A stretch of 64,000 nt of DNA from an uncultured Bacteroidota bacterium. Lineage in GTDB: Bacteria > Bacteroidota > Bacteroidia > Bacteroidales > GCA-2748055. This document shows positions 12,126 to 58,414 of the stretch, one piece after another. Positions within the stretch are counted from its first letter, which is position 1. Each line of letters starts with the position of its first letter. The position numbers and the translations under genes were made by a program. The notes under the pieces are model-generated. The model was not told where the DNA came from and made no database searches. It saw only the letters and a list, made by a program, of their open reading frames with translations. The DNA lies in NCBI GenBank assembly GCA_963713725.1, contig CAVQMZ010000017.1, positions 37,242 to 101,241 of the forward strand, given 5' to 3'.

Positions 12126-13153
12126 CAGATAAACACTGGGAACAACTCAAGGCCATTGTAAATGGTGAAACCCTCACTCCCGCCCCCATGGGCTTCATCA
12201 TCGATTCACCCTGGCTACCCAACTGGTATGGTATTTCCCTGCTGGACTATTTTACCAGTGATGAGCTCTGGCTGAAAGCCAACCTGAAAGCCGAAGAGAC
12301 CTTCCCCGACCTCATGTTCCTGCCCGGCTTCTGGTCCGAATACGGAATGTGCACTGAGCCTTCAGCCTTCGGAGCCCGCAGCTCCTTCCCCTTCAACGAG
12401 TTTCCCCATGCTTTTCCCTGCATCGAAGCTCCGGAGCAAATCAAGAACCTTCCCCAGGCCAATCCGGAGAAAGACGGCCTTGGCCCCATGGTACTGAACC
12501 GCATCAAACTGAATGAAAAGAAAATCAACGATGCAGGACACCAGATCCGTTTTTCTGTTTCCCGGGGCCCCCTGAATATTGCATCCTTTCTTATGGGGAC
12601 CACCGAGTTTATGATGGCCATGATCACCCACCCCGACGAAACCCACATGCTCATACGGAAAATCACCGACTACCTGAAAGGTTTCCACGACCGGCAGGCG
12701 GAGCTTTTCCCATCCACCGAAGGCATTATGATGCTCGACGACATTATCGGCTTTATCTCGGCCGATCAGTTTGAGGAGTTTGGCCTCCCCTACTTCAAAG
12801 AGCTCTACGACAGGGACCTTCCCGTAAAATTCCTGCACAACGATGCACCCTGCATGGAATCCGCCCCCTATCTGCCCGCCATGGGGGTGAACCTCTTTAA
12901 CATGGGCTTTGATACCGACCTCAACGAGCTAAAAAAGATCACAGAAAACAAAGTCACCATGCTTGGGAACATCCCACCCAGGGATGTGCTGGCACGCGGA
13001 ACTGAAGAAGAAATCAAGGCCTCTGTCCACGAACTGAAAACCCGGCTGGAAGATCCCTCCAGGGTAATCCTGTCCTGTGGCGGTGGCATGCCACCCGATG
13101 TCACCACTGCCCAGATTAATGCCTTCATCCAGGCCGTCAAATCCCACAACTAA
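12122..13153 (+). CDS. uroporphyrinogen decarboxylase (URO-D)-like family protein
   Basis: 343-aa ORF. The overall pattern resembles URO-D/MtaA-like TIM-barrel proteins (e.g. ...SCGGGMPPDV near the C-terminus). The start overlaps the stop of the RES gene. Confidence 0.65.
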   Translation: MTDKHWEQLKAIVNGETLTPAPMGFIIDSPWLPNWYGISLLDYFTSDELWLKANLKAEETFPDLMFLPGFWSEYGMCTEPSAFGARSSFPFNEFPHAFPCIEAPEQIKNLPQANPEKDGLGPMVLNRIKLNEKKINDAGHQIRFSVSRGPLNIASFLMGTTEFMMAMITHPDETHMLIRKITDYLKGFHDRQAELFPSTEGIMMLDDIIGFISADQFEEFGLPYFKELYDRDLPVKFLHNDAPCMESAPYLPAMGVNLFNMGFDTDLNELKKITENKVTMLGNIPPRDVLARGTEEEIKASVHELKTRLEDPSRVILSCGGGMPPDVTTAQINAFIQAVKSHN

Positions 13154-13298
13154 GCCCCTAACTACTAACCATTAACCACTAACTACTAACCTACTAACCC
13201 ACTAACTGCTAACCCACTAACCCACTAACCACTAACCCATTAACCCACTAACCACTAACTACTAACCTAATAACCCACTAACTGCTAACCCATTAACC
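13154..13298 (+). repeat. G-depleted (C/A)YTAACC tandem-repeat spacer, copy 1
   Basis: The whole 145-nt intergenic region is made of ACTAACC/ATTAACC/CCACTAAC units. It has only 3 G and ends directly at ATG 13299. Confidence 0.95.
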
Positions 13299-14270
13299 AT
13301 GAAACCAATATCCAGCCTGCCAATTTTTATTATAAGTCTTGCTCTAATGACTGCCTGTGCCCCAAAACCCCCATCACCCACCCTGCTTGTTGATGATACA
13401 TCCACCACCATCGCAATGGGTGAAAACCTGCTGCTTACCTATGTTCATGCCGAGACACCGGCGCCCGAGGGTACCAATCCCCTCTATAAACGTTCAGCCT
13501 ACATCCACCCTTTGCGTTCCCCAGGCGGTGAGATCCTGACCACCATTCAGCCTCCCGATCACATCCACCACTACGGAATCTGGAATCCCTGGACCCATAC
13601 CAATTTTGGAGGCGACAGCGTGGATTTCTGGAACCTGGCGCTGGGACAGGGAACTGTGAGATTTAAGGAATACCTGGAGGTAACTGAAAACGAGGGTGTG
13701 GCCGGTTTCCTGGTGGGACATGATCATATTTACTTCCCGGAAGAAGGTGGCGAGAAAGTTGCCATTAAAGAGACCTGGGATATAAAAGTTCACAATCTGA
13801 GTGATTCTTCCTACATCGCTGACCTTACGGTTGACCTTACTAATGTCCTGGACATGGACATTGAGCTGGAGGCATACCGCTACGGGGGCGGACTGGGTTA
13901 CAGGGCCACCGAAAGGTGGGATCCCGGTAATGCAACTGTGCTGACCTCAGAAGGAAAAAATTGGTCAGAGGCTGACGGTACCGGTGCCCGCTGGGTAAGA
14001 GTTGAGGGCGAATCGTCGGTTCCGCAGGGTCGCTCCGGCATCCTCTTCCTGAGTCACCCCGAAAACCGCTCCCACCCTGAGCCCATGCGCATGTGGCCTC
14101 CAATTTCCAACGAAGGAAAAGCCAATGTGTTTTTTGAATTCTGCCCCATCAGGCACCAGGCGTGGATCCTGGAGCCAGGGAAGATGTACACCCTGAAATA
14201 TCGCATGGTGGTCTTTGACGGCAGCCTGGATGCTGAAAGCGCCGAAATACACTGGAAAAATTTCCAATAA
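13299..14270 (+). CDS. DUF6807/PmoA-family protein (lipoprotein)
   Basis: 323 aa with lipobox LMTAC. The segment YIHPLRSPGGEILT...PDHIHHYGIWNPWTHT...DFWN is characteristic of the PmoA-like DUF6807 family that commonly accompanies Gfo/Idh/MocA oxidoreductases. Confidence 0.7.
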   Translation: MKPISSLPIFIISLALMTACAPKPPSPTLLVDDTSTTIAMGENLLLTYVHAETPAPEGTNPLYKRSAYIHPLRSPGGEILTTIQPPDHIHHYGIWNPWTHTNFGGDSVDFWNLALGQGTVRFKEYLEVTENEGVAGFLVGHDHIYFPEEGGEKVAIKETWDIKVHNLSDSSYIADLTVDLTNVLDMDIELEAYRYGGGLGYRATERWDPGNATVLTSEGKNWSEADGTGARWVRVEGESSVPQGRSGILFLSHPENRSHPEPMRMWPPISNEGKANVFFEFCPIRHQAWILEPGKMYTLKYRMVVFDGSLDAESAEIHWKNFQ

Positions 14271-14399
14271 TCCCTATCTTAGAACCCACTAACCCACTAA
14301 CCCAACTAACCCACTAACCCAATAACCCATTAACCCACTAACCCATTAACCCACTAACCCAATAACCCATTAACCCATTAACCCACTAACCCTTCATCC
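14271..14399 (+). repeat. G-depleted (C/A)YTAACC tandem-repeat spacer, copy 2
   Basis: 129-nt intergenic region with repeats CCACTAAC/CCATTAAC/CCAATAAC from about 14284. It contains a single G (14282). Confidence 0.95.
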
Positions 14400-15779
14400 A
14401 TGCAAAGACGATCCTTCATAAAAAAAGCCACGGCAGGCACGGCAGGCGCCATTTTAGTTCCCACCATCATACCTTCACATGTACTGGGTAAGACTGCTCC
14501 AAGCAACAGGATACAGGTTGCGCAGATTGGCTTCGGGCGCATTGCCATGACCCACGATCTGCCCGAGACCCTGAAAAACCAGTATGCCATGGGAGTGGCT
14601 GTGGCTGATGTGGACATCAACCGTGCCCATAAGGGGAAAAAATGGATCGAGGACTATTATGCCGGGCAGACTGGCAGGAAGGACTACGCTGATATAAAGG
14701 TTTACCAGGATTACAGGGAGATGTTAGAGGATAAAAACATCGATGCGGTGATTGTTTCCACACCCGATCACTGGCATGCCAAACCTGCCATAGATGCAGC
14801 GCTTGCCGGCAAGGATATCTACCTTCAAAAGCCAGCTTCCCTTACCATTGAAGAAGGCCGGCAAATGAGTGATACCGTAAATCGTACAGGTGTGATTTTC
14901 CAGCAGGGAAGCCAGCAGAGAGGCGGCCAACCCTGGCCCCAGTTTCACAGGGCCTGTGAGCTGGTTCGAAACGGACGGGTCGGGGAATTGACCAGGATTG
15001 AAATCGGGCTACCTGGCGACCCTTCGGGTGATGAGGAACTGATTATGCCTGTTCCCGAAAACCTGAATTACGACATGTGGCTGGGATCCACTCCAAACGT
15101 ATACTATACTGAAAAACGGGTACACCCCCAGGACAGTATTACCAACCGACCAGGCTGGCTGCGTTGTGAGCAGTTTGGTGCCGGCATGATCACCGGCTGG
15201 GGTGCCCACCACCTGGATACTGCCCACTGGGGTATGGGAACCGAGTACACCGGCCCGGTCGAGGTGGAAGCAGAAGCCACCTTCCCCACTTCCGGTCTGT
15301 GGGATGTCCATGGCGATTTCCATGTCTGGGCTAAGTATGCCAACGGGGTAAATATGGAAGTCAGCGGAGCCTTCCCCAACGGTGTGAAATTCATTGGAAC
15401 GGAAGGCTGGATTTTTGTCTCCCGCGGCAACGTGAAGGTAACCTCCACCGATCCGGGCCAGGCAGATGCAGAATTGAAGGCCCTGGATGCCAGCGACCCA
15501 AAAATTCTGAAGTCGGAGATCGGACCCGATGAAATCCACCTCTACAAGGCACCCGAGCAGCACGATGACTGGATAAATGCCATCCGCTCCCGAAAAGATC
15601 CGGTGGCTCCCGCCGAAGTGGGACACCGGTCCTGCTCAGCCTGCCTGGTGAGTCACATCGCCATGAAAGTTCCAGGGAAACTATACTGGGATCCACTGAA
15701 GGAAAGGTTTAAGGATAATGACCTTGCAAACTCCATGCTGGGCAGGCCCCAGCGCGCCCCCTATGGCACAAACTACTAA
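14400..15779 (+). CDS. Gfo/Idh/MocA family oxidoreductase with twin-arginine signal
   Basis: 459 aa. It has MQRRSFIKKATAGTAGA (TAT signal), the IQVAQIGFGRIA Rossmann start and the STPDHWHA motif. Confidence 0.9.
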   Translation: MQRRSFIKKATAGTAGAILVPTIIPSHVLGKTAPSNRIQVAQIGFGRIAMTHDLPETLKNQYAMGVAVADVDINRAHKGKKWIEDYYAGQTGRKDYADIKVYQDYREMLEDKNIDAVIVSTPDHWHAKPAIDAALAGKDIYLQKPASLTIEEGRQMSDTVNRTGVIFQQGSQQRGGQPWPQFHRACELVRNGRVGELTRIEIGLPGDPSGDEELIMPVPENLNYDMWLGSTPNVYYTEKRVHPQDSITNRPGWLRCEQFGAGMITGWGAHHLDTAHWGMGTEYTGPVEVEAEATFPTSGLWDVHGDFHVWAKYANGVNMEVSGAFPNGVKFIGTEGWIFVSRGNVKVTSTDPGQADAELKALDASDPKILKSEIGPDEIHLYKAPEQHDDWINAIRSRKDPVAPAEVGHRSCSACLVSHIAMKVPGKLYWDPLKERFKDNDLANSMLGRPQRAPYGTNY

Positions 15780-15969
15780 CCCCTAACCTATTAACCCCTA
15801 ACCTACTAACCCCTAACCCCTAACCTACTAACCCCTAACCTATCTAACCCCTAACCTACTAACCCCTAACCACTAACCCCTAACCCCTAACCCCTAACCT
15901 ATTAACCCCTAACCCTACTAACCCCTAACCCATTAACCCATTAACCCATTAACCTATCAATCCATTCTA
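15780..15969 (+). repeat. G-free CCCCTAAC/CTACTAAC tandem-repeat spacer, copy 3
   Basis: 190 nt between stop 15777-15779 and ATG 15970 with no G at all. It includes three perfect CCCCTAA units at 15877-15897. Confidence 0.95.
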
Positions 15970-29402: not shown

Positions 29403-29464
29403 ATCTCTCTCTTTTGACTTTATGGATTTTACAGACTTTACTCAGCTTCGCTTTCGACTTATGG
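29403..29464 (-). repeat. TAAAGTC-type octamer repeat spacer
   Basis: In gene sense: TAA-CCATAAGTCGAAAGCGAAGCTGAGTAAAGTCTGTAAAATCCATAAAGTCAAAAGAGAGAGAT-ATG. It fills the whole intergenic gap. Confidence 0.8.
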
Positions 29465-32340: not shown

Positions 32341-32347
32341 TAACAGG

Positions 32348-32603
32348 TCATTTACCTGAATATTTATCTGACAGGCCCCTAGATAATTCCTCCTTATAAT
32401 CAAAATCGTCCGGCACAGCTAAAAGTACCCTTCAGGGATTTAATATGGGAGCTGATTTCCATTTCCTGTTTTTCTCTTCCTTTGTAATGGCTTTCAGATA
32501 GCATTCAACGATATCCGACAAGACTCCTGCCCCGCTGACTGGCATAATACTTGGCCTTACCAATCGTCTCCTTATCAATGGTTAATGTAAGTTTTGTATT
32601 CAT
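32348..32603 (-). pseudogene. DUF6364-like antitoxin, 3 or more frame changes
   Basis: Own translation across three frames: MNTKLTLTIDKETIGKAKYYASQRGRSL / SDIVECYLKAITKEEKN / ...IKSLKG... / DFDYKEELSRGLSDKYSGK*. This resembles the small antitoxins found upstream of PIN toxins in Bacteroidota. Confidence 0.5.
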
Positions 32604-32686
32604 AACAGCCTTTCTTAATCAAATTACCTGTACAAAATTACGCAAAACCGGATACACGTGCAATTAAATCGTGATTTACACGTGTA

Positions 32687-34241
32687 TTATATCCTGCAAA
32701 TCGCCCCGGTGGGACAGGCATCTGCCACTTCCAGGGCCACCTTCTCCAGCCCCTTCCCCAGCGACTCGTTAAAGGGAATCCCCACACAACATCAAAGCCC
32801 CGGCCAATAAATGTCAGACCAAAATCCTCACTGTATTTTTCCGTGATCCTCACACAGAGTCCACACTTTAATGCATTTTGAATCCTCATAAATCACAGAT
32901 TCATGCTGATCGGCCTTGGTACAAAGCTGGCGCTCCTCCGATTTAAACTTCCTCTGATCGGCCCCGTACTGGTCCGAATAGATCCTGAGTCTGCAATTCT
33001 CCAGCTCCCGGCAATCGCAATGCAGACACCGGGCCGCCTCCTTCATCACCTGCTCCCTGGCTCAGTCCCCCGCCATATTTTCCGGCTCGATGCGCTCACC
33101 TGGCCACAGATTCCTTCAGGTACTCTGCATATTCGGCAGGATCTAACTTCCCAAAACGGGAGTTAAACCTGAAGGCTTCCCCCTTAACTGCTTTACCCTG
33201 CAAAAACTGGTCCACACTGAAGGCAGCCTCCTTTCCCTGCCCCAGTGCCCTGATGGCCATGCGGGAAGGTTTCAGGCACTGCCCACAACAAAAACATTGG
33301 ATCCTTCCACCTGGTAGGTGTTTCCATCAGCCTCCACACCTTTGGGATGCATGGGGAGTCCCCAGGCTCCAATACCACTTTTTCCCTGTCCCATCGCAAT
33401 CACCACAGCATCACTGTCAGCAAGCGATCTTCTCATAGCCTGTCTCATCCACATCAACCCCGGTCTGAAACACCACACCGGCCTTCTTAATCAGGGCAAT
33501 TTCTTTTTCCAGAACCTCGGCAGGAAGCTCCTCCTCCTTCAGTTCCAGGAGTGAGCCCCCGGCCCTATCGTGCCGGTCAATAAGCTTCACACTGTGACCC
33601 TTAAGCGCCAGGTGCCATGCGGCAGCCAGTCCGGCCGGCCCGGCCCCGATCACACTTACCTTCTTCCCGCTATTTGGTTCCTTCTCCGGAATCCAGGAAG
33701 CATCAAGCTCCAGGTCAGCATCTCCGGCTGCACGTTTCAGCAGGCAGATGGAAACTGCCCCATCGATGGCTTTCCTTCGGCAGGCCCCCTCACAGGGAGC
33801 AGGGCAGATCCTGCCCAGTATGGAGGGAAGGGCAATATCTTTTTTTACCACCTTCAGTGCTTCGGCAAACTCACCCCTGGCCAGCAGGCGGTTCATCAAA
33901 GGAATATCCATATGAGCCGGACAGGTCATCTGGCAGGGGGCTTCACAATCGCCCACATGCTCGCTGAGCAACAGTTCCAGGGAGGTTTTCCTGGCCTGCA
34001 TCACTTCCTCATCCCCGGTGATAATATCCATACCTTCCTCCACCTCAAGTGAACAGGAAGGAAATAGCTTTCCGGATTTCTTGATCCTTCACCACGCAGA
34101 CCATGCATGAGGAAAAATGGGGCAGATCCTTTGAGATAACACATGGAAGGCACCTCCAGACCCGTCTCCCCTGAGCACCTCAATAAGGCTACACCCGGCC
34201 TCAGCCTCAATCTCCCTTTTATCTATTTTCAGTTTTACCAT
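32687..34241 (-). pseudogene. [2Fe-2S] ferredoxin / GltD-like FAD-NAD(P) oxidoreductase / C-terminal [4Fe-4S] fusion, at least 8 frame changes
   Basis: Starts MVKLKIDKREIEAEAGCSLIEVL... at ATG 34239-34241. The largest fragment, 33417-34043, has HVGDCEAPCQMTCPAH, ICPAPCEGAC and VSVIGAGPAGLAAA. Later pieces in other frames are ...AIRALGQGKEAAFSVDQFLQGK..., ...CLHCDCRELENC... and ...KCIKCGLCVRI...ACPTGAICRI*. Confidence 0.7.
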
Positions 34242-34313
34242 CTTCTCTACACTTCTTTCAACCTTCTGTCAGGCTTTACATTTACTTCTTAAGACTTTGT
34301 CAACCTTTACAGA
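34242..34313 (-). repeat. degenerate TAAAGTC-type repeat spacer
   Basis: In gene sense: TAG-TCTGTAAAGGTTGACAAAGTCTTAAGAAGTAAATGTAAAGCCTGACAGAAGG...GAGAAG-ATG. Confidence 0.6.
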
Positions 34314-35862
34314 CTATCGTGTGATTACTGCATCCTCAGGACAAACCTGCCTGCAGCCATCACATTTAATACATAGTTCATTATCCACCACATGCTTTTC
34401 ATGGGGCTTAAAGGCAATGGCATCCACCGGGCAATCCTGGGCACAGAGGGTGCAGCCTATACAATCGTCGGTAATTTCATATTTAATCAGATCCTTGCAC
34501 TTTCCGGCCGGACATTCGCCCCGGATGTGGGCTTCATACTCATCCCGGAAATAATTCAGGGTGGAGAGAATGGGATTGGGAGCAGTACCACATAGTGCAC
34601 AAAGACTTCCCGTTTTGGTCCAGTGTGCCAGCTCCTCCAGCTTTTCCAGGTCCGTTTCACTTCCCTTTCCTGTGGTAATCTTCTCAAGGATCTCCAGCAT
34701 TCTTTTGGTACCAATGCGTCCAAAACTGCATTTTCCGCAGGCTTCATTCTGGGTAAAGGTGAGAAAGTAGCGGGCAATATCCACCATGCAGTCCTTATCG
34801 TCCAGTACCACCAGTCCGCCCGAACCCATCATGGCTCCCACCTCCTTGAGAGACTCAAAATCAATGGGGGTATCTGCCTTCCATGCGGGCACACATCCAC
34901 CCGAAGGTCCACCAATCTGAACAGCCTTAAATTCCCTGCCATCGGCCACTCCTCCTCCAATTTCCTCAACAACCTCACGGATTGTCATTCCCATGGGCAC
35001 CTCAATGAGTCCGCCCCGGGCAACCTTCCCGGCCAGGGCAAAAACTTTTGTTCCCCTGGATGATTCTGTTCCAATACTGTTAAAGGATGCGGCCTTGTTT
35101 TTCAGGATGTAGGCAATCTGGGCAAAGGTCTCCGTATTATTCACCAGCGTAGGCTGTCCCCACAATCCTTTCACCGCAGGAAAGGGTGGACGGATCCTGG
35201 GAAAGCCTCTTTTCCCTTCAATGGATTCGATCAAGGCGGTTTCCTCCCCACAGACAAAGGCACCGGCTCCCTGGTAGACAGTCAAGATCAAAATCAAATC
35301 CCGTCCCCAGAATATCCTTCCCAAGATATCCCTGTTCACGACATACCACAAGGGCCTGCTGAATTCGGGTAACCGCCAGCGGGTATTCGGCACGTATGTA
35401 CAGAATCCCTTCTGCTGCCCCCACAGCATAGCCTGCAGCAATAAGGCCTTCGATGATCCGGTAGGGATATGATTCCAGTAACATGCGATCCATAAATGCG
35501 CCCGGATCGCCCTCATCGCCATTGCAAATAATATATTTTTTCTCACTGCCGGCATCGGCCACCATCTGCCATTTCTTTCCTGTGGGAAATCCGCCTCCAC
35601 CCCTGCCCCGAATGCCACTTTCGATAATCTCATCAATCACCTCCTGGGGAGTCATTTTCTTCAGCACCCTTTGCAGGCCTCTGAATCCATTGCGCTGTTT
35701 ATACTCCTCAACATCCACGGGATTAATCACACCCCTGAATTCGGTGGCCATGGGAATCTGCTTATCCAGGAAAAGGGAGACATGCTTTTCCCTCACATCA
35801 AGCGAATAACGATCCACTCCATCCCAACGGCTGTCGTCCCGAACAGAATTGGCCATACTCAT
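34314..35862 (-). pseudogene. NuoF-like NADH-binding flavoprotein subunit with two C-terminal [4Fe-4S] motifs (HydB/HndC type), one frameshift near 35275-35290
   Basis: ORF 35218-35862 carries GIRGRGGGGFPTGKKW and CNGDEGDPGAF. ORF 34314-35636 carries GAFVCGEETALIESIEG, the CGKC region, CIGCTLCAQDCP and CIKCDGCRQVCP. The junction is ...GTGFDFDL/VYQGAGAFVCGEE. Confidence 0.8.
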
Positions 35863-36658
35863 CAGGCGATCTGCTTAAACGCCTTATCAGGCCGTCGGGC
35901 TGGAAATGCCGTTCCACAATCTGATCCACATCGGCAGCATCCACTTTTGAATAAAGGGTGGGCTCCCCATGGGTAGGAACAATCTCCACCAGGGGAACCT
36001 GGTGACACATGCCCACACAACCCACATGTTTAAGTTTTACATTCAATCCCTTGCGGTCAATGGTATCTTTTACGGAATCGCGGATTTCATCACTTCCGCT
36101 GGCCACACAACATGAACCCAGCCCGATTCGAATCTCGCCCTTTACTTCACCACCGCCGGCATACTTGTATTTTTTCTTTTTTGAGCCACCCTCCTGGCTC
36201 TGAAAATCGGACAGAACCGAGGTCACCTTGGAAGTACTTACATGACCATAGGTCACCTCATCGATTTGCACCACGGGTGCCAGGGTACAGCAGCCCAGGC
36301 AGTTTACCTTTTCAATGGTATATTCACCGGATGGAGTGGTATCCTCCGATACTGCCAGACCAAGTTCGCGTTTCATGGCATCGTAAACCTGCTCGGCTCC
36401 CTTCACGTGACAGGCTGTTCCCACGCAAACTTTGATCATATGCTTTCCCGCCGGCTTAAAGCGGAACTGGGAATAAAAACTGGCCACACCCACAATCTGT
36501 GCTGGTGTAATCTCCGTGAGCTCGCAGACCCTTCTCAATGCCTCCTCGGGAAGATAATTATAACGTCCCTGTATGGCCTGAAGAATGGGAATCACCGCAT
36601 GCGGCTCCTTCCCCAGCTCCTCCACAATCCCATCTATATCTCTTATCTCAATCTCCAT
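35798..36658 (-). CDS. NuoE-like [2Fe-2S] subunit with a second thioredoxin-like [2Fe-2S] domain
   Basis: 286 aa with CVGTACHVKG...CLGCCTLAP (NuoE fold) and a second GLGSCCVASG...CVGMCHQVP domain. The last ~20 codons overlap the NuoF-like start by 65 nt and may themselves be frame-shifted. Confidence 0.8.
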   Translation of the reverse strand: MEIEIRDIDGIVEELGKEPHAVIPILQAIQGRYNYLPEEALRRVCELTEITPAQIVGVASFYSQFRFKPAGKHMIKVCVGTACHVKGAEQVYDAMKRELGLAVSEDTTPSGEYTIEKVNCLGCCTLAPVVQIDEVTYGHVSTSKVTSVLSDFQSQEGGSKKKKYKYAGGGEVKGEIRIGLGSCCVASGSDEIRDSVKDTIDRKGLNVKLKHVGCVGMCHQVPLVEIVPTHGEPTLYSKVDAADVDQIVERHFQPDGLIRRLSRSPDEYGQFCSGRQPLGWSGSLFA

Positions 36659-36800
36659 TAACCCGCTAACTTCTAACTTATTAACCCACTAACTCTACTA
36701 ACCCTACTAACCTCTAACTTATTAACCCCTAACCTACTAACCCACTAACCTACTAACTTACTTAACCCACTAACTCACTAACCCCTAACCTGCTAACTTA
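36659..36800 (+). repeat. G-depleted YTAAC tandem-repeat spacer, copy 4 (antisense to local transcription)
   Basis: 142-nt intergenic region of CGCTAAC/TTCTAAC/CCACTAAC/CCCCTAAC units with 2 G. It has the same absolute orientation as copies 1-3, but the flanking genes are on the minus strand. Confidence 0.95.
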
Positions 36801-38702
36801 TTAACCGCTCGCTTCGCGAGCTATTTTTCCAATACAGTATAGATTTTTTGTCCCTCTCAAATAGATCACCCCATCTGCAAAGGCAGGAAGCGCAAAACCC
36901 TGCTCTCCAAGTTCGGGTTCGGCAATGATTGTTCCGCTGGCATCGGCCTTCATAATATGACATATACCCTCCTTGTCCATGATATATAGCTTACCCTCTG
37001 CAATGACAGGAGAAGACCAGATTTCATTGTCAAACTCCTTTTCCCATTTTTTCTCTCCGGTTTTGGCATCATAGCACACCACCACTCCAAAACTGGTGGC
37101 CATGTACATTAAACCCTGGTGAGCAACCGGACTGCCCACTTCTGACATGTACTCATCATCTTCCCACACATACTCCCCCACTGATTTTGGGTCAATGGCC
37201 AGGGTCCGCGCATACTCCTGAGAAGCAAAAACCAGACCATCGGAGAAGGCTATGGACGGTCCCACTTCTCCCATCATGGCCTCAACTTTCCATAATTCCG
37301 CCCCGGTAGCCAGATCATGACCCGACACATAAGGATCAGCCGATGTGACAATCTGTATTTTTCCATCCACTTCGATGAGCGCGGGGGAAGCCCATGAAAT
37401 ATGAACCGGCCTTTCCACGTCCCATACCGTTTCACCGTTTGCCGTATTCAGGGCCAGCATACGCCCCTTTGTATTGGTATCATACTGAACTACAACTTTA
37501 TGATCCCACACCTGAAGTGAAGAGGAATGGCCATAATGGTTGTTGGGCACACCCAGGTTTCGTCCCCATATCTTCTTTCCGTCCAAAGTGAAGGCCACTA
37601 TATCACCATTGGCGAAAATGGCATAAACAGCCTTTCCGTCCACAGCCATGGTGGCAGCAGCAAGACCGGTATCCTCGGTAACCCTGGGCATGGTGGCAGG
37701 TGATCCCGGTATATCTTTCACTTCTTTTTCCCAAAGGAGCTGTCCCGTATTCCGGTCATAGCAGGCAACTACCAGTCCGTCCTTATCTCCTCCGGAAATA
37801 AAAATCCTGCTGCCCCAGATTACTGGTGAATTATACCCGGGCTTGGAAAATGCCACCTTCCACTTTACTTTCTGACCCGATGGACCATCCCATTCCACAG
37901 GAATATTCTTATGAAATGAAACACCCAGCCCCATATAACCCCTGAAAGTGGCATGGTTAAGCTTAAAATCATTCCGGTTGAAAGCTCCGCCTGAAGCCGC
38001 ACTGGCTATGGAGTTTTTCTCCTGAACTGTTTCAACGCCCGCAGACGAAGGTGCCGGGCTGACTTCCTGCTCAGTGACGGCCCCATCCGGCACAGCTTCG
38101 GATGAAGACTCAGCGAGGCCTTCCTCCGGGGCTCCAACTTCACCTGCGGCCTGGTTCTCACCAAAAACATCCACCACCTCCACATCACTTACTTCCCCGA
38201 CTGAAACAGCAGATTCAGCCATCTGGTCATATTCCTTGAGAAAATCGTTGGTTAAAACACCCGCTACAAGCGAAAGACCAAGGATGAGCCCTCCGGCCAG
38301 GAAGAGCCAGTACTGGGCATTTGCCCTTGCCTTAAGAAGCCCTTCTGTAAGTTCTTCCGGAGCTTCGATGCCCGCTCTTAAATCGGTATAGAATTTCATG
38401 GAAACAGCCAGTACAATACCACCGATGAGCAGGAGCCAGGTACCTGTCTTTACCTGCCAGCGGCTGGTGAAATAGGCCTTTCTTGCCAGCAAATCAAAGC
38501 TTCGGATTTCCTCCTTGAGCTCCTCATTGTTTGGCTCCTGTGACAGGCGCTTAACCAGGGCCTCTATGGCCTGACTTTCCAGTGGCTCGGTCTGCTTCAT
38601 ATGCCAGAAATTCAGAATCAGAAGCAAGGCCACCACTCCGCAAAATATACCGGAAATGAGCATTGCCCTGTGTGCCACTTTTATTTTATTTTCTTTATCC
38701 AT
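36801..38702 (-). CDS. membrane-anchored PQQ-like beta-propeller repeat protein
   Basis: 633 aa. It has three N-terminal TM helices, an acidic A/E/V/S-rich linker, then a propeller with repeated ...G.LWE/W.. blades (DGKAVYA, DGKIQIV, EGKLYIM). Confidence 0.75.
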   Translation of the reverse strand: MDKENKIKVAHRAMLISGIFCGVVALLLILNFWHMKQTEPLESQAIEALVKRLSQEPNNEELKEEIRSFDLLARKAYFTSRWQVKTGTWLLLIGGIVLAVSMKFYTDLRAGIEAPEELTEGLLKARANAQYWLFLAGGLILGLSLVAGVLTNDFLKEYDQMAESAVSVGEVSDVEVVDVFGENQAAGEVGAPEEGLAESSSEAVPDGAVTEQEVSPAPSSAGVETVQEKNSIASAASGGAFNRNDFKLNHATFRGYMGLGVSFHKNIPVEWDGPSGQKVKWKVAFSKPGYNSPVIWGSRIFISGGDKDGLVVACYDRNTGQLLWEKEVKDIPGSPATMPRVTEDTGLAAATMAVDGKAVYAIFANGDIVAFTLDGKKIWGRNLGVPNNHYGHSSSLQVWDHKVVVQYDTNTKGRMLALNTANGETVWDVERPVHISWASPALIEVDGKIQIVTSADPYVSGHDLATGAELWKVEAMMGEVGPSIAFSDGLVFASQEYARTLAIDPKSVGEYVWEDDEYMSEVGSPVAHQGLMYMATSFGVVVCYDAKTGEKKWEKEFDNEIWSSPVIAEGKLYIMDKEGICHIMKADASGTIIAEPELGEQGFALPAFADGVIYLRGTKNLYCIGKIAREASG

Positions 38703-38745
38703 TTTCTCTTTCTTTCAGACTTTACGACTTTATGACTTTACAGAC
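38703..38745 (-). repeat. TAAAGTC octamer repeat spacer (cleanest copy)
   Basis: In gene sense: TAA-TCGTTAAGTCTGTAAAGTCATAAAGTCGTAAAGTCTGAAAGAAAGAGAAA-ATG. TAA occurs in all three frames. Confidence 0.9.
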
Positions 38746-38955
38746 TTAACGATTAACCGGGCTTGCCCGGTCCACCGGGCAGTAATCCATACACCTTCCG
38801 CAGGAAAAACAATTTGCTTTGTGGGGTTCATAATCCTCCCTGCTCCGGAATACCACCTGGTTCATAAGGGTAATTCCCAGCACAAGGCCAATGAATCCAC
38901 CCAGGACCCAACCTCCCTTTTTAAATTTCGTTCTGATTACAGCGGCCTGCTCCAC
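38746..38955 (-). CDS. TM helix + [4Fe-4S] motif fragment; probably the C-terminal part of the NapH-like protein
   Basis: 69 aa with no ATG (GTG only) and CFSCGRCMDYCP. Its frame stays open upstream to 13 nt from the NapH-like stop. Deleting one C near 39027-39030 fuses them (...LMISPAELRDDETNLDIQAF...). Confidence 0.5.
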   Translation of the reverse strand: MEQAAVIRTKFKKGGWVLGGFIGLVLGITLMNQVVFRSREDYEPHKANCFSCGRCMDYCPVDRASPVNR

Positions 38956-39025
38956 CAGCTCCTCAAAAGTATCCCCCGATTCCAGGAAGGCCTGGATATC
39001 CAGGTTAGTCTCATCATCCCTCAGC

Positions 39026-40039
39026 TCAGGCTGGACTGATCATCAGCTCGGCCAGGTAAACATCGGGGTGCATTCTGCTCAGGAATACATCAGATTTTGA
39101 TCCGATCCATCCCCCCAGCACAACCAGCACAGGAATCAAGGCAATATAAGTGATGAAGCTTTTTAGATACTTCCTGGTCACTTCAGGCTTACGGTAAGCC
39201 TTATCAACCGGAACCTCAATGGCATCAAAGGGACATGAGTCCTTACAAAGTTTGCATTTAATGCATTCGGAAGGGGTAATGCTCAAATGCCACTTAGAAA
39301 ACTTCGACATCCAGCTCAGTAATACACCGTAGGGACAAAATACCCGGCAATAGGGCCGTGCATAAAACATCCCCAACAAAAGAAAGGTGACGCCCAGGAA
39401 GATCATCAGAAAAGGACCATCCATACGGAAGATCCCCACAAAAGGATCATACCTGCAAATAATAAAATCGCTTCCAGTGGCTGCCAGCAGAACGGCAAGC
39501 CCCAGGTATATTACCGGTATAAAGCCAAGGGTTTTCCTGATCCAGCTGGGGATGGATACCGGGTTGATGACCAGCAGGTCCTGTATGGCACCCAGGGGAC
39601 AGACCGAGGCACAGAAAACCCTGCCAAAAAAGAGGGCAAAGATCAGAGGCAGCAGGAAAAAGATCAGGGCTGCCAGGGATATGGTATAGGCAGGATCAAA
39701 TATGGAGAGGGCCACATTCTGTATGGCTCCCACCGAACAGATACAACCATCACGGTAGAAGCCGAAATAAATCAGGGTGAAAACAGAAAGCCAGAGCAAT
39801 CCCTTTCTTGAGCGTTTGCGCACGGCCAGCCAGGAGGCCAGTGAAAGTGCTGCCAGCAAAACAAAAACATCGAAATATTCAAGTGCCACAGTCCGTGGTT
39901 CAGGGGTTGTGGGATCGGGCTGGACATATCCACTGTCAAATTCGGGTTTTGGAAAACGCTGCTGTCCATGAATCAGGGTGCTTGCGCTAACCATGATGAG
40001 TAAGAGCAGGATGAAAAAACCCGGGGTCCGTTTTGGCAT
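39026..40039 (-). CDS. NapH/MauN-like polytopic membrane [4Fe-4S] protein
   Basis: ORF 39026-40135; the likely start is MPKRTPGFFILLLL at 40039, 1 nt after the NapG-like stop. It has multiple TM helices, two CxxxCP-type motifs (RVFCASVCPLGA, RVFCPYGV) and CIKCKLCKDSCP. Confidence 0.8.
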   Translation of the reverse strand: MPKRTPGFFILLLLIMVSASTLIHGQQRFPKPEFDSGYVQPDPTTPEPRTVALEYFDVFVLLAALSLASWLAVRKRSRKGLLWLSVFTLIYFGFYRDGCICSVGAIQNVALSIFDPAYTISLAALIFFLLPLIFALFFGRVFCASVCPLGAIQDLLVINPVSIPSWIRKTLGFIPVIYLGLAVLLAATGSDFIICRYDPFVGIFRMDGPFLMIFLGVTFLLLGMFYARPYCRVFCPYGVLLSWMSKFSKWHLSITPSECIKCKLCKDSCPFDAIEVPVDKAYRKPEVTRKYLKSFITYIALIPVLVVLGGWIGSKSDVFLSRMHPDVYLAELMISPA

Positions 40040-40040
40040 A

Positions 40041-40649
40041 CTAACCCTCCTTTTCATTGGTAAAGTTCCCTTTGATGATATAGGGTTTATTTGCTGGCAC
40101 CCTGCTGATGGCCTTGGAAGGACAAGCTGTTGCAATGGCGCACTGATTGCAATTCTTGCACCTGTCGTGCCTGATCTGCAAATGCAGGGACCCGTTCCCG
40201 AAGGCGGAACAGCCTTTCACGCACTTGGCACAACCAATGCAAAGTGGCTCATCGATAATGTATTCGAAATAGGGTTCCTCGATAAATTTTCTCTGTATGG
40301 CTGCAGTGGGGCAAAGCTGGTTCTCCGCACCGGTTTGCAATTTGGCTCCCGGCTTGAAGTAGCCTCCGCACAGATCGCAGTATCCACAAAGGTCATAGGC
40401 ATGCACACACTTTACGGCCGATTCGGCCATCACACACTCGGTGGCACAGCGACCGCACTGGGTGCATTTGAAGGGATCGATCTGCCAGACATACTCCTCT
40501 CCACCGGATCTCCTTGTCAGGGCCATGGCACCAGTGGCCACAACGCTAAGGCCGAGTGTCAGCCTTACCCCCTTATTGATAAATTCCCTCCGCTTATATG
40601 TCTTATCCTTTTCCATATCCCCTTTCATTTTTTGCATCGGGAAGATCAC
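40041..40649 (-). CDS. NapG/MauM-like periplasmic poly-[4Fe-4S] ferredoxin with twin-arginine signal
   Basis: 202 aa with RREFINKGVRLTLGLS (TAT signal) and four Cys clusters (CTQCGRCATEC, CGYCDLCG, CIGCAKCVKGC, CKNCNQCAIAC). The start is ambiguous: M at 40649, 40637, 40628 or 40616. Confidence 0.8.
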   Translation of the reverse strand: MIFPMQKMKGDMEKDKTYKRREFINKGVRLTLGLSVVATGAMALTRRSGGEEYVWQIDPFKCTQCGRCATECVMAESAVKCVHAYDLCGYCDLCGGYFKPGAKLQTGAENQLCPTAAIQRKFIEEPYFEYIIDEPLCIGCAKCVKGCSAFGNGSLHLQIRHDRCKNCNQCAIATACPSKAISRVPANKPYIIKGNFTNEKEG

Positions 40650-44507: not shown

Positions 44508-45763
44508 TTATTACCTATTCTACTAATCTTATATGCAATAAGAACCTTTCCATGCCTCACCAGCAACATTCCATTATAAATGGCACGGTCTCGCCCAATG
44601 AGGACCGCTCCCTTCACTAACCCTGAAGATCGAGATCACTTCAAAGCCTTCAGGATCGGCTTTTACCAGGGCCATGTTCCCCCTTTTTTCCTCATAACAA
44701 TAAAGCATGCCATCGGCAGAAATGATCGGGTCCCTTGTTGAACCAGTCGTTGGATCCAGACAATTTCACCGGTATCCCAGTTCATGCAGACCCATTTACC
44801 GGAATATCTTCCGGTAAAGTTTGATCCGTAGAGATAGCCATCCAGCAAAACAACACCATGGTTCTGGTTATCAAAGGTCTGATCCACAAATTTTTCCTCA
44901 CTGACTTCCCGTCGGGGGCAATTTCAAGCATTACCGATTCCTTATCCCATCCACTGGTAATCCACAGGCAACAGTCACTGTAGGTGGGTGTATTGGCAAG
45001 GATGGTTGAATTCTGCAGCCTGCTCATCCAGCACATTGTAATGATAGGTCCACATGATCTCACCATTTTCAGGATCCACTGAAATCACGTGGGTTCTGGT
45101 CGCTGTAATAATGTACTCACTACCGCAATGCTCGATGAGTATGGGAGAAAGATTGGACCGCTGTGCCTCCAAAGACACGGACTTCCAGACCAGCTCGCCA
45201 CTCATCTTATCCAGGGCAATCACCGTGGTATTTTCACCTGCCGGGTGTGACAATAACTTTATCCTCCACCAGCAGGATGGATTCGGACACCCCGAACATA
45301 TCCCAGTGGCTCTTATATACTTCGTGGACATTCACCTCCCACAATTTTTCACCGGTGATGGCATGGAAACAAACCAGCATATCCATACCCGTGAGCACAT
45401 ATATGCGATCCCCATCAACGGTGGGTGTACATCTGCGATTCCGGGAAGGATTGTTTCCATCCCGGACCGAACGGATTTTGCCAGAGAAGATTTCCCTCCA
45501 TATCCAGGGCTGTCAGGTATTCAAGGCTGTCCTTAATCCCTGTGGTATAGATCACATTTCGGGTGGCAACCGCTGAAGAATAACTTTTCCCCAGATCCTC
45601 GGCTACAAAAAGTATCTCGGGGCCATCCTCTGGCCAGGCTTCAATAAATTTGTCGCCGGAAAAATCCCGTTGCGCTGTCGGGCCTCTCCACTGAGCATCC
45701 TGCCCCGAAACCAAAACCGACAGACAAACCAACAACAACGCATGCAACACCAATTCTCAACAT
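44504..45763 (-). pseudogene. PQQ-like beta-propeller repeat protein, at least 6 frame changes
   Basis: Fragments 45415-45753, 44975-45331, 44782-45066 and 44663-44887, plus unlisted pieces, read consecutively. The tail ...ALVKADPEGFEVISIFRVSEGSGPHWARP/AIYNGMLLVRHGKVLIAYK parallels the C-terminus of 45791-46999. Confidence 0.65.
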
Positions 45764-45790
45764 TTTTCTTTCGACTTTACGCTTTAAGAC
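45764..45790 (-). repeat. TAAAGTC-type repeat spacer
   Basis: In gene sense: TAA-GTCTTAAAGCGTAAAGTCGAAAGAAAA-ATG. Confidence 0.7.
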
Positions 45791-46999
45791 TTATTTGACT
45801 TTATAGGCTATAACCGCACTCCCATGCCTTAAATAAAGAACACCGTCATCAATAATGGGATGCGCCCAGTGCTGTTCTGAGCCTTTTGACACTTTGGTCT
45901 TGCTGACTACCTTAAACTCTGAAGGATCGGCTTTTACCAGAGCCAGTTCGCCACGATCGGTATAACAATAGAGCATGCCATCGGCATAGATCACCACTCC
46001 TTTTCCCAACTCGGTGGAAGCATACATCTCCTTCCCTGTATCCCACTCAACGCAACGCCACTCACGGGCATAATCGCCTGACATGTATATATAGCCGTCT
46101 ACAACAACGGCTCCACTCATACGACTGTCCAGCTTTTTACTGAACCATGACTGGGTAATAGAGGACCCGTCCATACTTAGAATCAGTGATCCGCCACCCT
46201 GGCCATAACCGCTGAAATAGAAAAGGACCCCATTCTGGTATATGGGCGTATTGGCATGAACGCTGTAATCGTTAGGCTGTTTGTGGGACCACAACAAATC
46301 GCCGTTAAGTGCATCCAGTCCGATCAGGTAGGATGCTGTATGCGTGATCAGAATTTTTCGTCCATTGTGATCGATCAAAAGCGGACTGCAATATGCGGAA
46401 AGCTCTCCTTTGCCCTTGCTGCTCCAGATCAAATCACCCGAGTGCCTGTTAAGGGCAACTACATTATTATTTCTCCCTCCCGGGGTGGCATAAATAATAT
46501 CTCCATCCACAACAGGTGTTTCATTTACCCCCCAGGTAATATTTTTCCCATCGAAGTCCTTAAACAAGGCTTTCGTCCATAAAATGGAAGCGTCTCCAGC
46601 AGCCATACAATATAACACGCCATTACCCGAGACAAGGTAAATCTTATCTCCGGCAAGCACAGGGGAACCCCTGCTACCAGTATAGCTGGAATTAAATTCG
46701 GGTCCATAGGCTTTCGTCCAGATTAGCTCCCCATCCAGCTTGAATTTAAAAAGCATACCAGTCTCCTCAACCATGCCGCTGACATAAAGAAAGCCCTGGC
46801 TTACCACAGGAGAGGAATGCCCCGTACCCAGTTTTTCGTAGGACCAGAGCTCCTCGGGTCCGGAAACAGGCCATTTCTTCAACAATCCCGTTTCACTATA
46901 AATCCCATTTCCGGATTCGCCTCGCCATCGGGTTGCAGGCTGAGAAAAACCCTCTGTAGCCAGAGCGGAGAGAAATAAGAAAATCAGCAATCGTTCCAT
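45791..46999 (-). CDS. PQQ-like (BamB-like) beta-propeller repeat protein, secreted
   Basis: ORF 45791-47059; the likely start is MERLLIFLFLSALATEGFSQ (signal peptide) at 46999. It has WRGESGNGIYSETGLLKKWPVSGPEELW and repeated G.L.W blades. It is the first gene of the minus-strand array. Confidence 0.8.
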   Translation of the reverse strand: MERLLIFLFLSALATEGFSQPATRWRGESGNGIYSETGLLKKWPVSGPEELWSYEKLGTGHSSPVVSQGFLYVSGMVEETGMLFKFKLDGELIWTKAYGPEFNSSYTGSRGSPVLAGDKIYLVSGNGVLYCMAAGDASILWTKALFKDFDGKNITWGVNETPVVDGDIIYATPGGRNNNVVALNRHSGDLIWSSKGKGELSAYCSPLLIDHNGRKILITHTASYLIGLDALNGDLLWSHKQPNDYSVHANTPIYQNGVLFYFSGYGQGGGSLILSMDGSSITQSWFSKKLDSRMSGAVVVDGYIYMSGDYAREWRCVEWDTGKEMYASTELGKGVVIYADGMLYCYTDRGELALVKADPSEFKVVSKTKVSKGSEQHWAHPIIDDGVLYLRHGSAVIAYKVK

Positions 47000-57450: not shown

Positions 57451-57505
57451 GGTTTCGACTTTATAGACAGACTTTAAGCTTTATGGACTTTTGGCTTTAC
57501 CGACT
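57451..57505 (-). repeat. TAAAGTC-type octamer repeat spacer
   Basis: In gene sense: TAA-AGTCGGTAAAGCCAAAAGTCCATAAAGCTTAAAGTCTGTCTATAAAGTCGAAACC-ATG. Confidence 0.85.
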
Positions 57506-58414
57506 TTAAGGCCAGAGGGACTCTGGATAAACACCATTATCCACAAGATCCCTGATCGCCTTTAGTACTTTGGGCTTGTCGTCCTGGTAGGTAACACCAA
57601 ACCAGGAAGAGGGCGTTTGCAGAACCGACATCTTTGCAAGGCCGGCATTGATAAGCTCGTCCACTGCAAGGGGAATGAAAAATTCGGCTTTGGGATCATT
57701 GATGTTCTCCTTAATGAAATCCTCAAAAATATCCCCGGCCTTTTTGAAAAAATCGGCGGTGAAGCCAAAAAGATTCATGGATACTGTATCCAGGGCATCC
57801 AGCGGATGAATTGAACCATCTGCATCCTCATAAACTATTTTGCCATCCTCCAGGAAAATTTTCGTGCGTTCGACCATTCCTTCCAGAAAACCATCTTCAT
57901 CCACCTGGCATACTCCACGGGCCACTGAACCATGTTCAGAAACCGTTTTCTGAAGCTGGAATCCAACCATGCAGTAACGACCGGGTTCATCCGGCGTGCT
58001 TTCAGCAAGGAAGTTTTGCATAATCTGGTATGATTCCCTGCCGTAATAGTCATCTGCATTGATTACAGCAAAAGGCCCGTTTATGGCATCCTTTGCCATC
58101 AGTACCGCATGCGCTGTTCCCCAGGGCTTAACCCGGTCGGCTGGTAAACTCATTCCTTCCGGAATGTTATCAATGGACTGGATCACATAATCCACCTTAA
58201 TGTGGGAAGGAAATTTTTTGATATAGTTTGCTTTAAAATCATCCTCCATTTTTGGAGAGATCACAAATACAAAACGATCGAAGCCTGCACGGTGGGCATC
58301 ATAAATGGAATAGTCGGTAATGGTCTCACCAGAAGGGCCAAAGGGATCAACCTGTTTCATTCCGCCATATCGGCTTCCCATCCCTGCAGCTAAAATTAAA
58401 AGCGTTGTATTCAT
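57506..58414 (-). CDS. sugar-phosphate nucleotidyltransferase family protein
   Basis: 302 aa with the N-terminal LILAAGMGSRYGGMKQ motif (G-x-G-t-R type) of NTP-transferases. Confidence 0.75.
   Translation of the reverse strand: MNTTLLILAAGMGSRYGGMKQVDPFGPSGETITDYSIYDAHRAGFDRFVFVISPKMEDDFKANYIKKFPSHIKVDYVIQSIDNIPEGMSLPADRVKPWGTAHAVLMAKDAINGPFAVINADDYYGRESYQIMQNFLAESTPDEPGRYCMVGFQLQKTVSEHGSVARGVCQVDEDGFLEGMVERTKIFLEDGKIVYEDADGSIHPLDALDTVSMNLFGFTADFFKKAGDIFEDFIKENINDPKAEFFIPLAVDELINAGLAKMSVLQTPSSWFGVTYQDDKPKVLKAIRDLVDNGVYPESLWP

Follow-up and report, generated by a model that had tools for sequence, protein, structure and literature searches.

The junctions between co-directional genes in a 64-kb stretch of DNA from an uncultured bacterium of the Bacteroidales (assembly GCA_963713725.1, contig CAVQMZ010000017.1, positions 37,242 to 101,241; hereafter the window, to which all coordinates refer) carry tandem arrays of a short unit built around the heptamer TAAAGTC. 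These arrays are a further member of an already published class of repeats that includes the short tandemly repeated repetitive (STRR) sequences, the TAACTGA repeats, the GGGNATC heptamers and the long simple-sequence repeats (LSSRs); the TAAAGTC unit itself appears to be new. With a probability of roughly 55%, we read them as non-coding, minisatellite-like LSSRs with units of 7-9 nt, driven by slippage and tolerated where they stand. This reading is preferred because the anatomy, location, rapid turnover and dispensability of the arrays fit it.

Tandem arrays at the junctions of the window

The arrays occupy the stretch from the end of the conserved coding sequence to the A-rich leader of the next co-directional gene, and often supply or absorb the stop codon. 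At the junction that leads into a gene for a PQQ-like beta-propeller protein (Table 1), the minus strand reads ...CCG GTT AAT CGT TAA GTC TG TAAAGTC A TAAAGTC G TAAAGTC TGAAAGAAAGAGAAA ATG, with the spacers TG, A and G in that order. The first unit, TTAAGTC, is degenerate and holds the real stop codon of the upstream gene, TAA at 38746-38748; the corresponding open reading frame (ORF) spans 38746..38955 and its protein ends ...CPVDRASPVNR. The leader TGAAAGAAAGAGAAA opens with a decayed unit (TGAAAG) and is not repeat-specific. The ATG at 38702 is the true start, as the N-terminus MD[KR]E.KIK is kept in 13 orthologues; the public gene call for the PQQ-like protein begins 13 codons downstream of it. 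An earlier, sequence-only reading of this DNA had described the array, and its existence between co-directional genes, its sequence and the limits of the gap (38703-38745) are all borne out exactly. The stop codon named there (TAA at 38753-38755) is out of frame, and lies 7 nt upstream of the true one. Its remark that TAA falls in all three frames holds for this array, with TAA at +8, +16 and +24 from the real stop, and fails for the family.

Four other gaps had been proposed to hold related arrays. Three of these are clear, with periods of 8-9 that are partly irregular (29403-29464, 45764-45790 and 57451-57505), whereas 34242-34313 is only a relic. Two arrays run past the limits first given for them and into the upstream ORF ends, to 45805 and 57510. 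The order of elements at 29403..29464 is TAAGTC, GAAAGC, TAAAGTC-TG-TAAAATC-CA-TAAAGTC, AAAAGAGAGAGAT, ATG, with a minimum free energy (MFE) of -1.7 kcal/mol and no start codon within the array. At 45764..45805 it is TAAAGTC, AAATAAGTC (which includes the stop), T-TAAAGC, G-TAAAGTC, GAAAGAAAA, ATG; the unit at 45797-45803 codes for the final YKV codons of the upstream gene, and the ATG at 45763 is likely the start of the downstream PQQ gene, with a 1-nt assembly frameshift before the ORF body. At 57451..57510 the order is TTAAAGTC, GG-TAAAGCC, AAAAGTC, CA-TAAAGC, T-TAAAGTC, TGTCTA-TAAAGTC, GAAACC, ATG, and the upstream stop at 57506-57508 is a TAA inside the unit TTAAAGTC. The relic at 34242-34313 has no exact core, contains ATG, GTG and TTG, and shows ordinary predicted folding; the start downstream of it is backed by orthologues.

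All five TAAAGTC-type junctions are on the minus strand, and in 5/5 the array is in sense orientation and ends 6-15 nt short of the ATG. Within the window the family is recurrent, of one orientation and found only between co-directional genes, in agreement with the sequence-only reading. Exact TAAAGTC occurs 18 times in the window compared with 5.22 +/- 2.54 times in dinucleotide shuffles, none of which reached 18 (0/100), and 14 of the 18 occurrences are carried by the minus strand. Ten of the 18 exact cores lie inside the 211 nt formed by 29403-29464, 38703-38749, 45764-45805 and 57451-57510 (~378-fold enrichment). TAAAGTC with one mismatch is not enriched across the window (165 vs 141 +/- 12). 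The genes that flank the arrays have no common theme, and encode Fe-S proteins, PQQ-like propellers, NuoEF-like and GltD-like proteins, a glycosyltransferase, an ABC ATPase and LacZ. The short-read assemblies of two relatives (L301 and L302; L numbers denote loci in other genomes) also contain arrays; thus, the arrays are not artifacts of long-read sequencing.

Arrays of 7-9 nt units are found in 9/15 genuine co-directional gaps of at least 25 nt in the window and in 0/6 divergent gaps (Fisher p=0.019). The nine comprise five of TAAAGTC type and four of CTAACCC type. The claim that most junctions in the window consist of repeats is therefore upheld for the larger gaps, and the coexistence of a second family (YTAAC in the sequence-only reading) is confirmed. 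Read in gene sense, the CTAACCC family is ACTAACCC at plus-strand genes and GGGTTAGT at minus-strand genes; on the plus strand it is C-rich at 4/4 sites, three between plus-strand genes and one between minus-strand genes. Its orientation follows the DNA strand, not transcription. An array of the 36655-36807 type is also present at the orthologous junction in L001 and L301. Transcripts of the oppositely directed operons would contain repeats complementary to one another over more than 100 nt (ACUAACCC vs GGGUUAGU), and the G-rich version of the CTAACCC repeat is of the G3N5 quadruplex type.

Single unit-like words are seen without a tandem array in short co-directional gaps (AAGTCCGTAAAACCAG at 54314-54329 and ...GATAAAGACAAAAG... 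at 28696-28724), and these may be seeds or remnants of arrays. Genes are split into 2-4 ORFs by frameshifts at 38746-40135, 34314-36658, 32638-34241, 44663-45753, 54796-57450 and 26350-28695, each being a single intact gene in the orthologues of L001-L003. They include genes for the Fer4 protein, NuoEF-like, GltD-like and PQQ-propeller proteins, a GH2 beta-galactosidase and a MacB-like permease. The frameshifts are either indels of long-read assembly or pseudogenes, and bear on every start and stop assignment in the window.

Table 1. Arrays and associated elements at gene junctions of the window, with coordinates on the forward strand (TRF, Tandem Repeats Finder).
Feature	Position	Strand	Flanking genes or context	Basis or remarks
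Core array	38718..38749	-		TRF period 8, 4.2 copies (TRF span 38718-38752)
Units of core array	TTAAGTC 38743-38749; TAAAGTC 38734-38740, 38726-38732, 38718-38724	-		Direct sequence read
A/G-rich leader TGAAAGAAAGAGAAA	38703..38717	-	Immediately ahead of ATG 38702 (633-aa PQQ-like beta-propeller gene)	
TAAAGTC array	29403..29464	-	Glycosyltransferase gene / ABC ATPase gene	TRF period 9 at 29416-29441
TAAAGTC array	45764..45805	-	Two PQQ-propeller genes	Direct read and exact cores
Irregular TAAAGTC array	57451..57510	-	Nucleotidyl-transferase gene / frameshifted GH2 beta-galactosidase gene	TRF period 16, 2.6 copies, 57470-57510
Weak degenerate relative (TGTAAAGG, ACAAAGTC, TGTAAAGCC)	34242..34313	-	NuoF-like gene / GltD-like gene	Membership uncertain
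CTAACCC-type array	36655..36807	-	Other-side junction of the same 633-aa PQQ gene	(GGGTTAGT)n in gene sense, CTAACCC on plus strand
Three (ACTAACCC)n arrays	13149-13299, 14283-14392, 15773-15956	+	Successive junctions of a plus-strand operon (13149..15956)	MFE 0 kcal/mol

Turnover at orthologous junctions

The best protein relatives of the window are named as metagenome-assembled genomes of Bacteroidales or Bacteroidota. The operon is syntenic in relatives, and a metagenome scan for its orthologues gave 11 loci, which allowed a qualitative comparison. The conserved part of the protein upstream of the core array ends CPVDR, and the tail that follows is different in each genome and partly repeat-encoded. 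The junction between this Fer4 gene and the PQQ gene has 4 units in the window, and in L301/L302, with flanks ~95% identical over the aligned junction, the same AAAGTC array is ~14 nt (two units) longer. At greater distance the unit differs: RAAAGTC heptamers are found in L306 (68% protein identity), (TAAAGTTTR)n in L003 (72%), (GGTTATT)n heptamers in L300 and L304 (80-82%), and CAGGGGA/CAGTRCT heptamers in L002 and L303 (75-77%). The array is absent from L299 (81%) and L001 (79%), and as the junction there is only 14 and 36 nt long, respectively, the arrays are dispensable for the operon.

Similar replacement is seen at neighboring junctions. The junction between the PQQ and NuoEF genes carries GGTTA-type units in most relatives (GGGTTAGT, GGTTATT, GTTAATAG or GTAAGTGG), the junction orthologous to 29403-29464 has a TGAAGTC/TAAGGTC/TAAAGTC array in L001, and that orthologous to 45764-45805 has (TAAAGTTTR)n in L003. 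A few core types recur: AAAGTY and GGTTA/TAACC make up most arrays, each at five or more distinct junctions in the clade. The arrays thus change length between close relatives and are replaced over modest distances, and their turnover is quick. The sequence-only reading had staked itself on enrichment of the motif at gene junctions and on its presence at orthologous junctions; the motif is strongly enriched at the junctions of the window, and related arrays stand at the orthologous junctions of some relatives.

Further repeat families are present in the same operon of the relatives: (CAGGGGA/CAGTGCT)n, (GGTTATT)n, (GGTAGTTN)n and (GGAGATA)n (L002 9854-10000; L300 85-189; L304 70-200 and 2121-2190; L303 4936-5026; L003 14335-14360). 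Each relative's genome reuses a favorite unit at adjoining junctions.

Distribution in other genomes

An exact-pattern scan for three consecutive TAAAGTC cores, with one genome per species, gives at least 120 loci. Among the matches listed, to which all counts for other genomes in this and the next section refer, ~68 loci belong to Bacteroidota (Bacteroidales, Flavobacteriales, Saprospiraceae and Cytophagales) and ~31 to Patescibacteria; of the few that remain, some are coding repeats (PKV, VGK). Cultured carriers are Flavobacterium caeni (CGMCC 1.7031), Odoribacter sp. AF15-53 and Arcicella rosea, and several genomes are matched on 3-4 contigs. The window suggests that intergenic tandem repeats of 7-9 nt units may be common in Bacteroidales, Flavobacteriales and Patescibacteria. 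The literature was searched for the unit and its dimers, and AAAGTC/TAAAGTC is not printed as a repeat in the papers searched.

The commonest period in 120 other loci is 9 (TAAAGTC+YN). Host loci in general contain 105, 64 and 142 arrays of period 7, 8 and 9, respectively, in ~0.9 Mb. Spacers are TG, A, CT, CA, TA, G, T, CG and others, and those of two bases are nearly always pyrimidine-first. Among the matches listed (L004-L123), spacer "dialects" are lineage-specific and common to dispersed loci of one genome, with TAAAGTCCT/CTT in gut Bacteroidales, TAAAGTCTG/CCA/CTA in environmental Bacteroidales, and period 8 (TAAAGTC[AGT]) in Flavobacteriales and Saprospiraceae. In long arrays the spacer is about three times more variable (0.14-0.26) than the core (~0.05), in a sample that was chosen for three perfect cores; an analysis of non-seed units is biased in the opposite direction.

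Recurrence across the database was considered as a sign that the unit is special, and dropped: viral contigs, scanned as a control, contain arrays at 11, 22 and at least 120 loci for three scrambled versions of the heptamer, as common as or commoner than those of TAAAGTC, with 22.

A different arrangement is seen in Patescibacteria and a few Bacteroidia, again among the matches listed, where an array is followed by a loop of 4-20 nt and an inverted array, giving predicted near-perfect hairpins of 30-40 bp (L018 at ~6310-6400, L009, L010, L024, L060, L065, L067, L070, L072, L081, L090, L095, L097, L103, L105, L115 and L120). Such pairs could possibly act as a repeat-built terminator or cruciform. 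There are no inverted array pairs within the window.

Position, orientation and frame

Positions in other loci rest on simple ORF-based gene calls. Solitary Bacteroidota arrays between co-directional genes are sense in 30 cases and antisense in 10 (p=0.002), with 14 further arrays in convergent gaps and 5 in divergent gaps. Thus, the fixed orientation relative to transcription that the sequence-only reading described is uniform for the five arrays of the window, and elsewhere a bias rather than a rule. The seeded arrays of the 68 Bacteroidota loci are distributed over 35 co-directional, 15 convergent and 2 divergent gaps, where 37, 7 and 8 would be expected from junction counts (p=6e-4) and 30, 7 and 15 from intergenic length (p=4e-5). 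Relative to this background, taken from the same loci, they are under-represented in divergent and over-represented in convergent gaps.

In 19/30 cases a sense array begins no more than 37 nt from the upstream stop, and in 10/30 it lies within 36 nt of the next start. Upstream stops are TAA (28), TAG (20) and TGA (2), often within a truncated unit (TAGTC), and ~45% of arrays open with a truncated NAGTC unit. The array TAA takes the three frames at random with respect to the upstream stop (19:15:16, p=0.77), and both in-frame backup stops and an array seeded by the stop codon were rejected on this ground.

In 43/61 loci TAAAGTC is carried by the G>C strand (p=0.002). The sense bias is no stronger than this one, the two being of equal strength, and orientation linked to transcription and orientation linked to replication are therefore inseparable in these data.

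Predicted structure, leaders and start sites

The four clear arrays of the window have an A content of 40-52% and are free of ATG, GTG and TTG, an absence that follows automatically from the core plus a spacer of 1-2 nt. Their MFE is -0.7 to -3.5 kcal/mol, weaker than in 97-100% of segments of equal length from the transcripts that carry them, with an open centroid structure. The possibility that arrays are less structured than their composition predicts was rejected (z of +1.1, +0.6, -0.7 and +1.4 relative to dinucleotide shuffles); the low structure is compositional only. Rfam 15 gives no matches at the gathering threshold across the 64-kb window. Scans for sigma-70 promoters and terminators find no promoter- or terminator-like sites in the junctions, with a promoter consensus that is not that of Bacteroidota. 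Co-transcription through the arrays is plausible, as we infer from these scans.

An A/G-rich tract directly before the ATG had been described as the end of every array. It is present in 4/5 junctions, the exception being 57451, which ends in GAAACC, and is not a feature of the repeat, since it is the ordinary A-rich leader of this genome: the mean A content of the leader is 0.48 in 23 other genes of the window and 0.51 at array junctions. In Bacteroidia, initiation from A-rich leaders independently of Shine-Dalgarno (SD) sequences is a known rule (PMC6847099), with ribosomes that ignore SD sequences and use unstructured A-rich leaders (PMC6847099, PMC7797042).

Accessibility of the start region (positions -18 to +12) was computed from the partition function for the native junction, with the array deleted, and with the array swapped for coding DNA. 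A benefit is seen only at 57451, and none at 38703, 29403 or 45764. Keeping the downstream start unpaired is rejected as a general effect of the arrays.

Proposed origin and tolerance of the arrays

If the arrays are LSSRs, they would arise and change by replication slippage, and would be transcribed within the polycistronic mRNA, as the lack of promoter- or terminator-like sites in the junctions suggests. They would persist because the junction position tolerates them, the unit being without a start codon, with nearly no pairing and with a stop in sense, and they would be excluded from the promoter-bearing divergent regions. Any effect would most likely be passive, that of an unstructured, A-rich spacer of variable length between cistrons rather than a sequence-specific signal. 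Arrays that are only tolerated slippage products would mark function-free parts of operon junctions and be a source of length polymorphism at the strain level. They would also be a hazard for gene callers, with stops and C-terminal tails being repeat-encoded.

Several observations weigh against so simple an origin. Each element of the model (slippage, transcription across the arrays, neutrality) is inferred. One core is found at five junctions of a single 64-kb window, which independent random slippage does not predict, and two core types (AAAGTY and GGTTA/TAACC) dominate the junction arrays of the clade. Periods of 8 and 9 nt are mixed around a constant core, and the roughly threefold excess of spacer variability, albeit in a pre-selected sample, hints at constraint on the core. 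Dialects common to dispersed loci of one genome imply homogenization across loci. The 30:10 sense bias needs an extra assumption, either a tolerance filter or strand-biased mutation. The retention of AAAGTY-type units at one junction down to 68% identity (the window, L301, L003 and L306) suggests persistence beyond that of a neutral array, and the recurrence of AAAGTC at five junctions and in many Bacteroidota and Patescibacteria needs copying between loci, a common seed or selection.

Alternative explanations

The same observations can be taken to indicate a multivalent RNA element, in which each AAAGUC core of a (UAAAGUCN)n array would bind one subunit or domain of a single-strand RNA-binding factor (RRM, cold-shock, S1 or KH) or serve as a track for scanning or standby ribosomes. 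In bacteria that make no use of SD pairing, the element would thereby adjust how the cistron downstream is translated or degraded, and the spacer dialect would co-evolve with the factor. Were it true that a factor recognizes the unit, it would amount to a new operon-internal layer of control in phyla without SD pairing. The same core is present at five window junctions and at many loci per genome elsewhere, and its better conservation than that of the 1-2 nt spacer suits single-strand recognition over double-helix phasing. The sense bias and the predicted single-stranded, start-codon-free state of the arrays fit as well, in hosts whose ribosomes are SD-blind and use unstructured A-rich leaders (PMC6847099, PMC7797042). 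Binding by S1, Csp or CsrA was proposed by MacGregor for TAACTGA repeats, and cold-shock proteins are thus among the candidate single-strand binders for analogous repeats (PMC4679880).

However, no candidate binding factor was identified for the TAAAGTC arrays, a quarter of the co-directional arrays are antisense, and the distance from array to upstream stop is shorter than that to the next start. Orthologous junctions function without an array or with unrelated units, predicted accessibility of the start region is not raised in 3/4 junctions, the missing start codons are automatic from core and spacer, and the contrast between core and spacer is confounded by the choice of sample. We consider such an element unlikely, although more probable than the alternatives that follow.

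A wider version of this model is more doubtful still. Here AAAGUC and GGUUA/UAACC arrays would together form a lineage-wide post-transcriptional code of the SD-blind Bacteroidota and Patescibacteria, serving as multivalent, single-stranded landing pads for an RNA-binding factor or as tracks for scanning ribosomes. How strongly consecutive cistrons are expressed or degraded relative to one another would depend on unit number, transcripts of different operons would pair through the complementary families, and the dialects would co-evolve with the factor. It is this joint claim, with all its parts, that we regard as rather improbable.

A feature of the DNA oriented by replication is also improbable, whether as a product of strand-asymmetric slippage or as an array for double-strand binding; its orientation would depend on the leading or lagging strand rather than on transcription. 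All nine window arrays, of either family, hold to a single DNA strand, and for CTAACCC this is true across operons of opposite direction; the plus strand has C>G over the entire window. In other genomes the 43/61 loci with TAAAGTC on the G>C strand include 7/10 of the Bacteroidota arrays that are antisense to genes. However, the GC skew of 8-kb blocks is confounded with gene direction, and sense Bacteroidota arrays are skew-positive in only 16/29. Variable spacing of 8 or 9 nt is ill-suited to phased double-strand binding, the strands were assigned without an origin or terminus, and 4/4 for one family would be expected by chance with a probability of 1/8.

The arrays might instead be stop-codon traps that end ribosomes in all frames and insulate or couple the translation of adjoining cistrons. 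The array at 38703 does have TAA in three frames within 27 nt of the stop, period-8 arrays elsewhere are likewise three-frame, and the upstream stop is often part of the first unit (TAA 28, TAG 20, TGA 2). However, the commonest period, 9, gives TAA in one frame only, the frames relative to the upstream stop are random, the units CAGGGGA, CAGTGCT and GGTTATT at the same junctions have no stop codon, and antisense arrays have no stops in any frame. The stop-rich, all-frame character that the sequence-only reading emphasized is thus not general, and a trap is very improbable as an explanation of the family.

Least credible is an origin from transposition, in which a site-specific mobile element with an 8-9 bp target duplication would have left the arrays as footprints or would use them as hot spots, or in which they would be fragments of a miniature element. 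The same unit at dispersed loci in both Bacteroidota and Patescibacteria, the ~45% of arrays that begin with a truncated NAGTC unit and the inverted pairs common in Patescibacteria might speak for it. Against it, the window arrays are accompanied neither by conserved flanks or terminal inverted repeats nor by transposase genes, relatives differ in the number of units at the same site, and bacterial DDE elements seldom leave tandem target copies after excision.

Other features of the window

A 16-nt direct repeat (GCGCAGTTCGYTAGAG, 2.2 copies, 1832-1867) lies in a 26-nt convergent gap and is unrelated to both junction families. The minus strand at 54330-54776, downstream of lacZ, encodes a 148-aa protein whose C-terminus carries a cold-shock domain (PF00313, E=6e-16); nothing observed here connects it with the arrays. 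The operon also contains a toxin-antitoxin-like pair of DUF6364 and PIN-domain genes (window 31925-32403), which is found in L001 (16021-16688) and L003 and is absent from L002.

Comparison with known systems

Intergenic tandem repeats of 7-9 nt have been on record for more than 30 years, from cyanobacteria, Xanthomonas and Beggiatoaceae, and to our knowledge have no accepted function. The STRR heptamers were reportedly described by Mazel et al. in 1990 from Nostoc, Anabaena and Calothrix. Like the arrays of the window, they occur as several unit families per genome, each lineage-specific, with a tandem unit of the 7-nt class that is non-coding and often lies between co-transcribed genes. In contrast, TAAAGTC arrays have a period of 8-9, with a core of 6-7 nt and a variable spacer in place of a strict heptamer, and are unrelated in sequence to STRR1-3. 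The host here, by its best protein relatives, is a member of the Bacteroidales and not a heterocystous cyanobacterium.

Arrays of protein-binding triplets are known from leader RNAs, with (G/U)AG x 9-11 for TRAP and UAG x 3 for HutP. They share with TAAAGTC arrays the short cores in single-stranded mRNA and the short, sequence-free spacers of slightly variable length, and are the functional model for the multivalent RNA element considered above. However, the TRAP and HutP sites are found at few regulons and are conserved with their protein, whereas TAAAGTC arrays are labile and stand at unrelated junctions. The REP/BIME and ERIC elements, which are imperfect, hairpin-forming palindromes of 35-127 bp, are mobilized by RAYT transposases. 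They too are dispersed, intergenic, located in or after operons, transcribed, and variable in presence between relatives, but the window arrays are direct repeats without pairing potential.

Three further classes were ruled out. An intrinsic terminator or REP-type palindrome does not agree with the MFE of -0.7 to -3.5 kcal/mol and the lack of terminator-like sites in the junctions. Phase-variable (contingency) simple-sequence repeats do not agree with a position after stop codons between co-directional genes, rather than in 5' coding or divergent promoter regions. CRISPR arrays have repeats of 23-50 nt, as opposed to units of 7 nt with spacers of 1-2 nt.

The TAACTGA repeats (MacGregor 2015) have a patchy distribution over Beggiatoaceae, Cyanobacteria and five Bacteroidetes, and are intergenic, mostly forward and just upstream of start codons without a canonical ribosome-binding site (PMC4679880). 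The window arrays take up the same position, in sense and ending 6-15 nt before the ATG. As with TAAAGTC arrays, the forward reading has stops, no RNA structure is predicted, the repeats are missing from orthologous gaps of close relatives, and other heptamers share intergenic regions (PMC4679880). The two differ in that TAACTGA is a strict heptamer with mostly 2-6 copies; the unit here is TAAAGTC, and only the second family of the window shares the TAAC core. TAAAGTC arrays also lie closer to the stop before them than to the start after them, and are abundant in Patescibacteria too.

The GGGNATC heptamers of Xanthomonas and Nostoc (Rehm et al. 2015) favor gaps between aligned ORFs and avoid divergent gaps and coding DNA; they stand no farther than 50 bp from a stop or start, are transcribed and have a variable copy number (PMC4692102). 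TAAAGTC arrays show the same genomic distribution, with co-directional gaps favored and divergent gaps avoided. Unlike GGGNATC, they have no G-tracts, so that a quadruplex is impossible, and no preference for four units. The quadruplex-capable analogue of GGGNATC in the window is the GGGTTAGT family, not TAAAGTC.

LSSRs (Mrazek et al. 2007), as summarized in PMC4679880, are tandem units of 5-11 nt, longer than expected by chance and scattered over a minority of genomes; they are mostly non-coding if the unit is not a multiple of three, and polymerase slippage has been proposed for them. In the part of the survey conveyed by that summary, Bacteroidota and Patescibacteria are not among the richest genomes, and heptamers dominate, whereas 9-mers do so in the TAAAGTC family. 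The TAAAGTC arrays nevertheless have the defining traits of LSSRs, being composed of head-to-tail units, more frequent than by chance, and changing in unit number between relatives.

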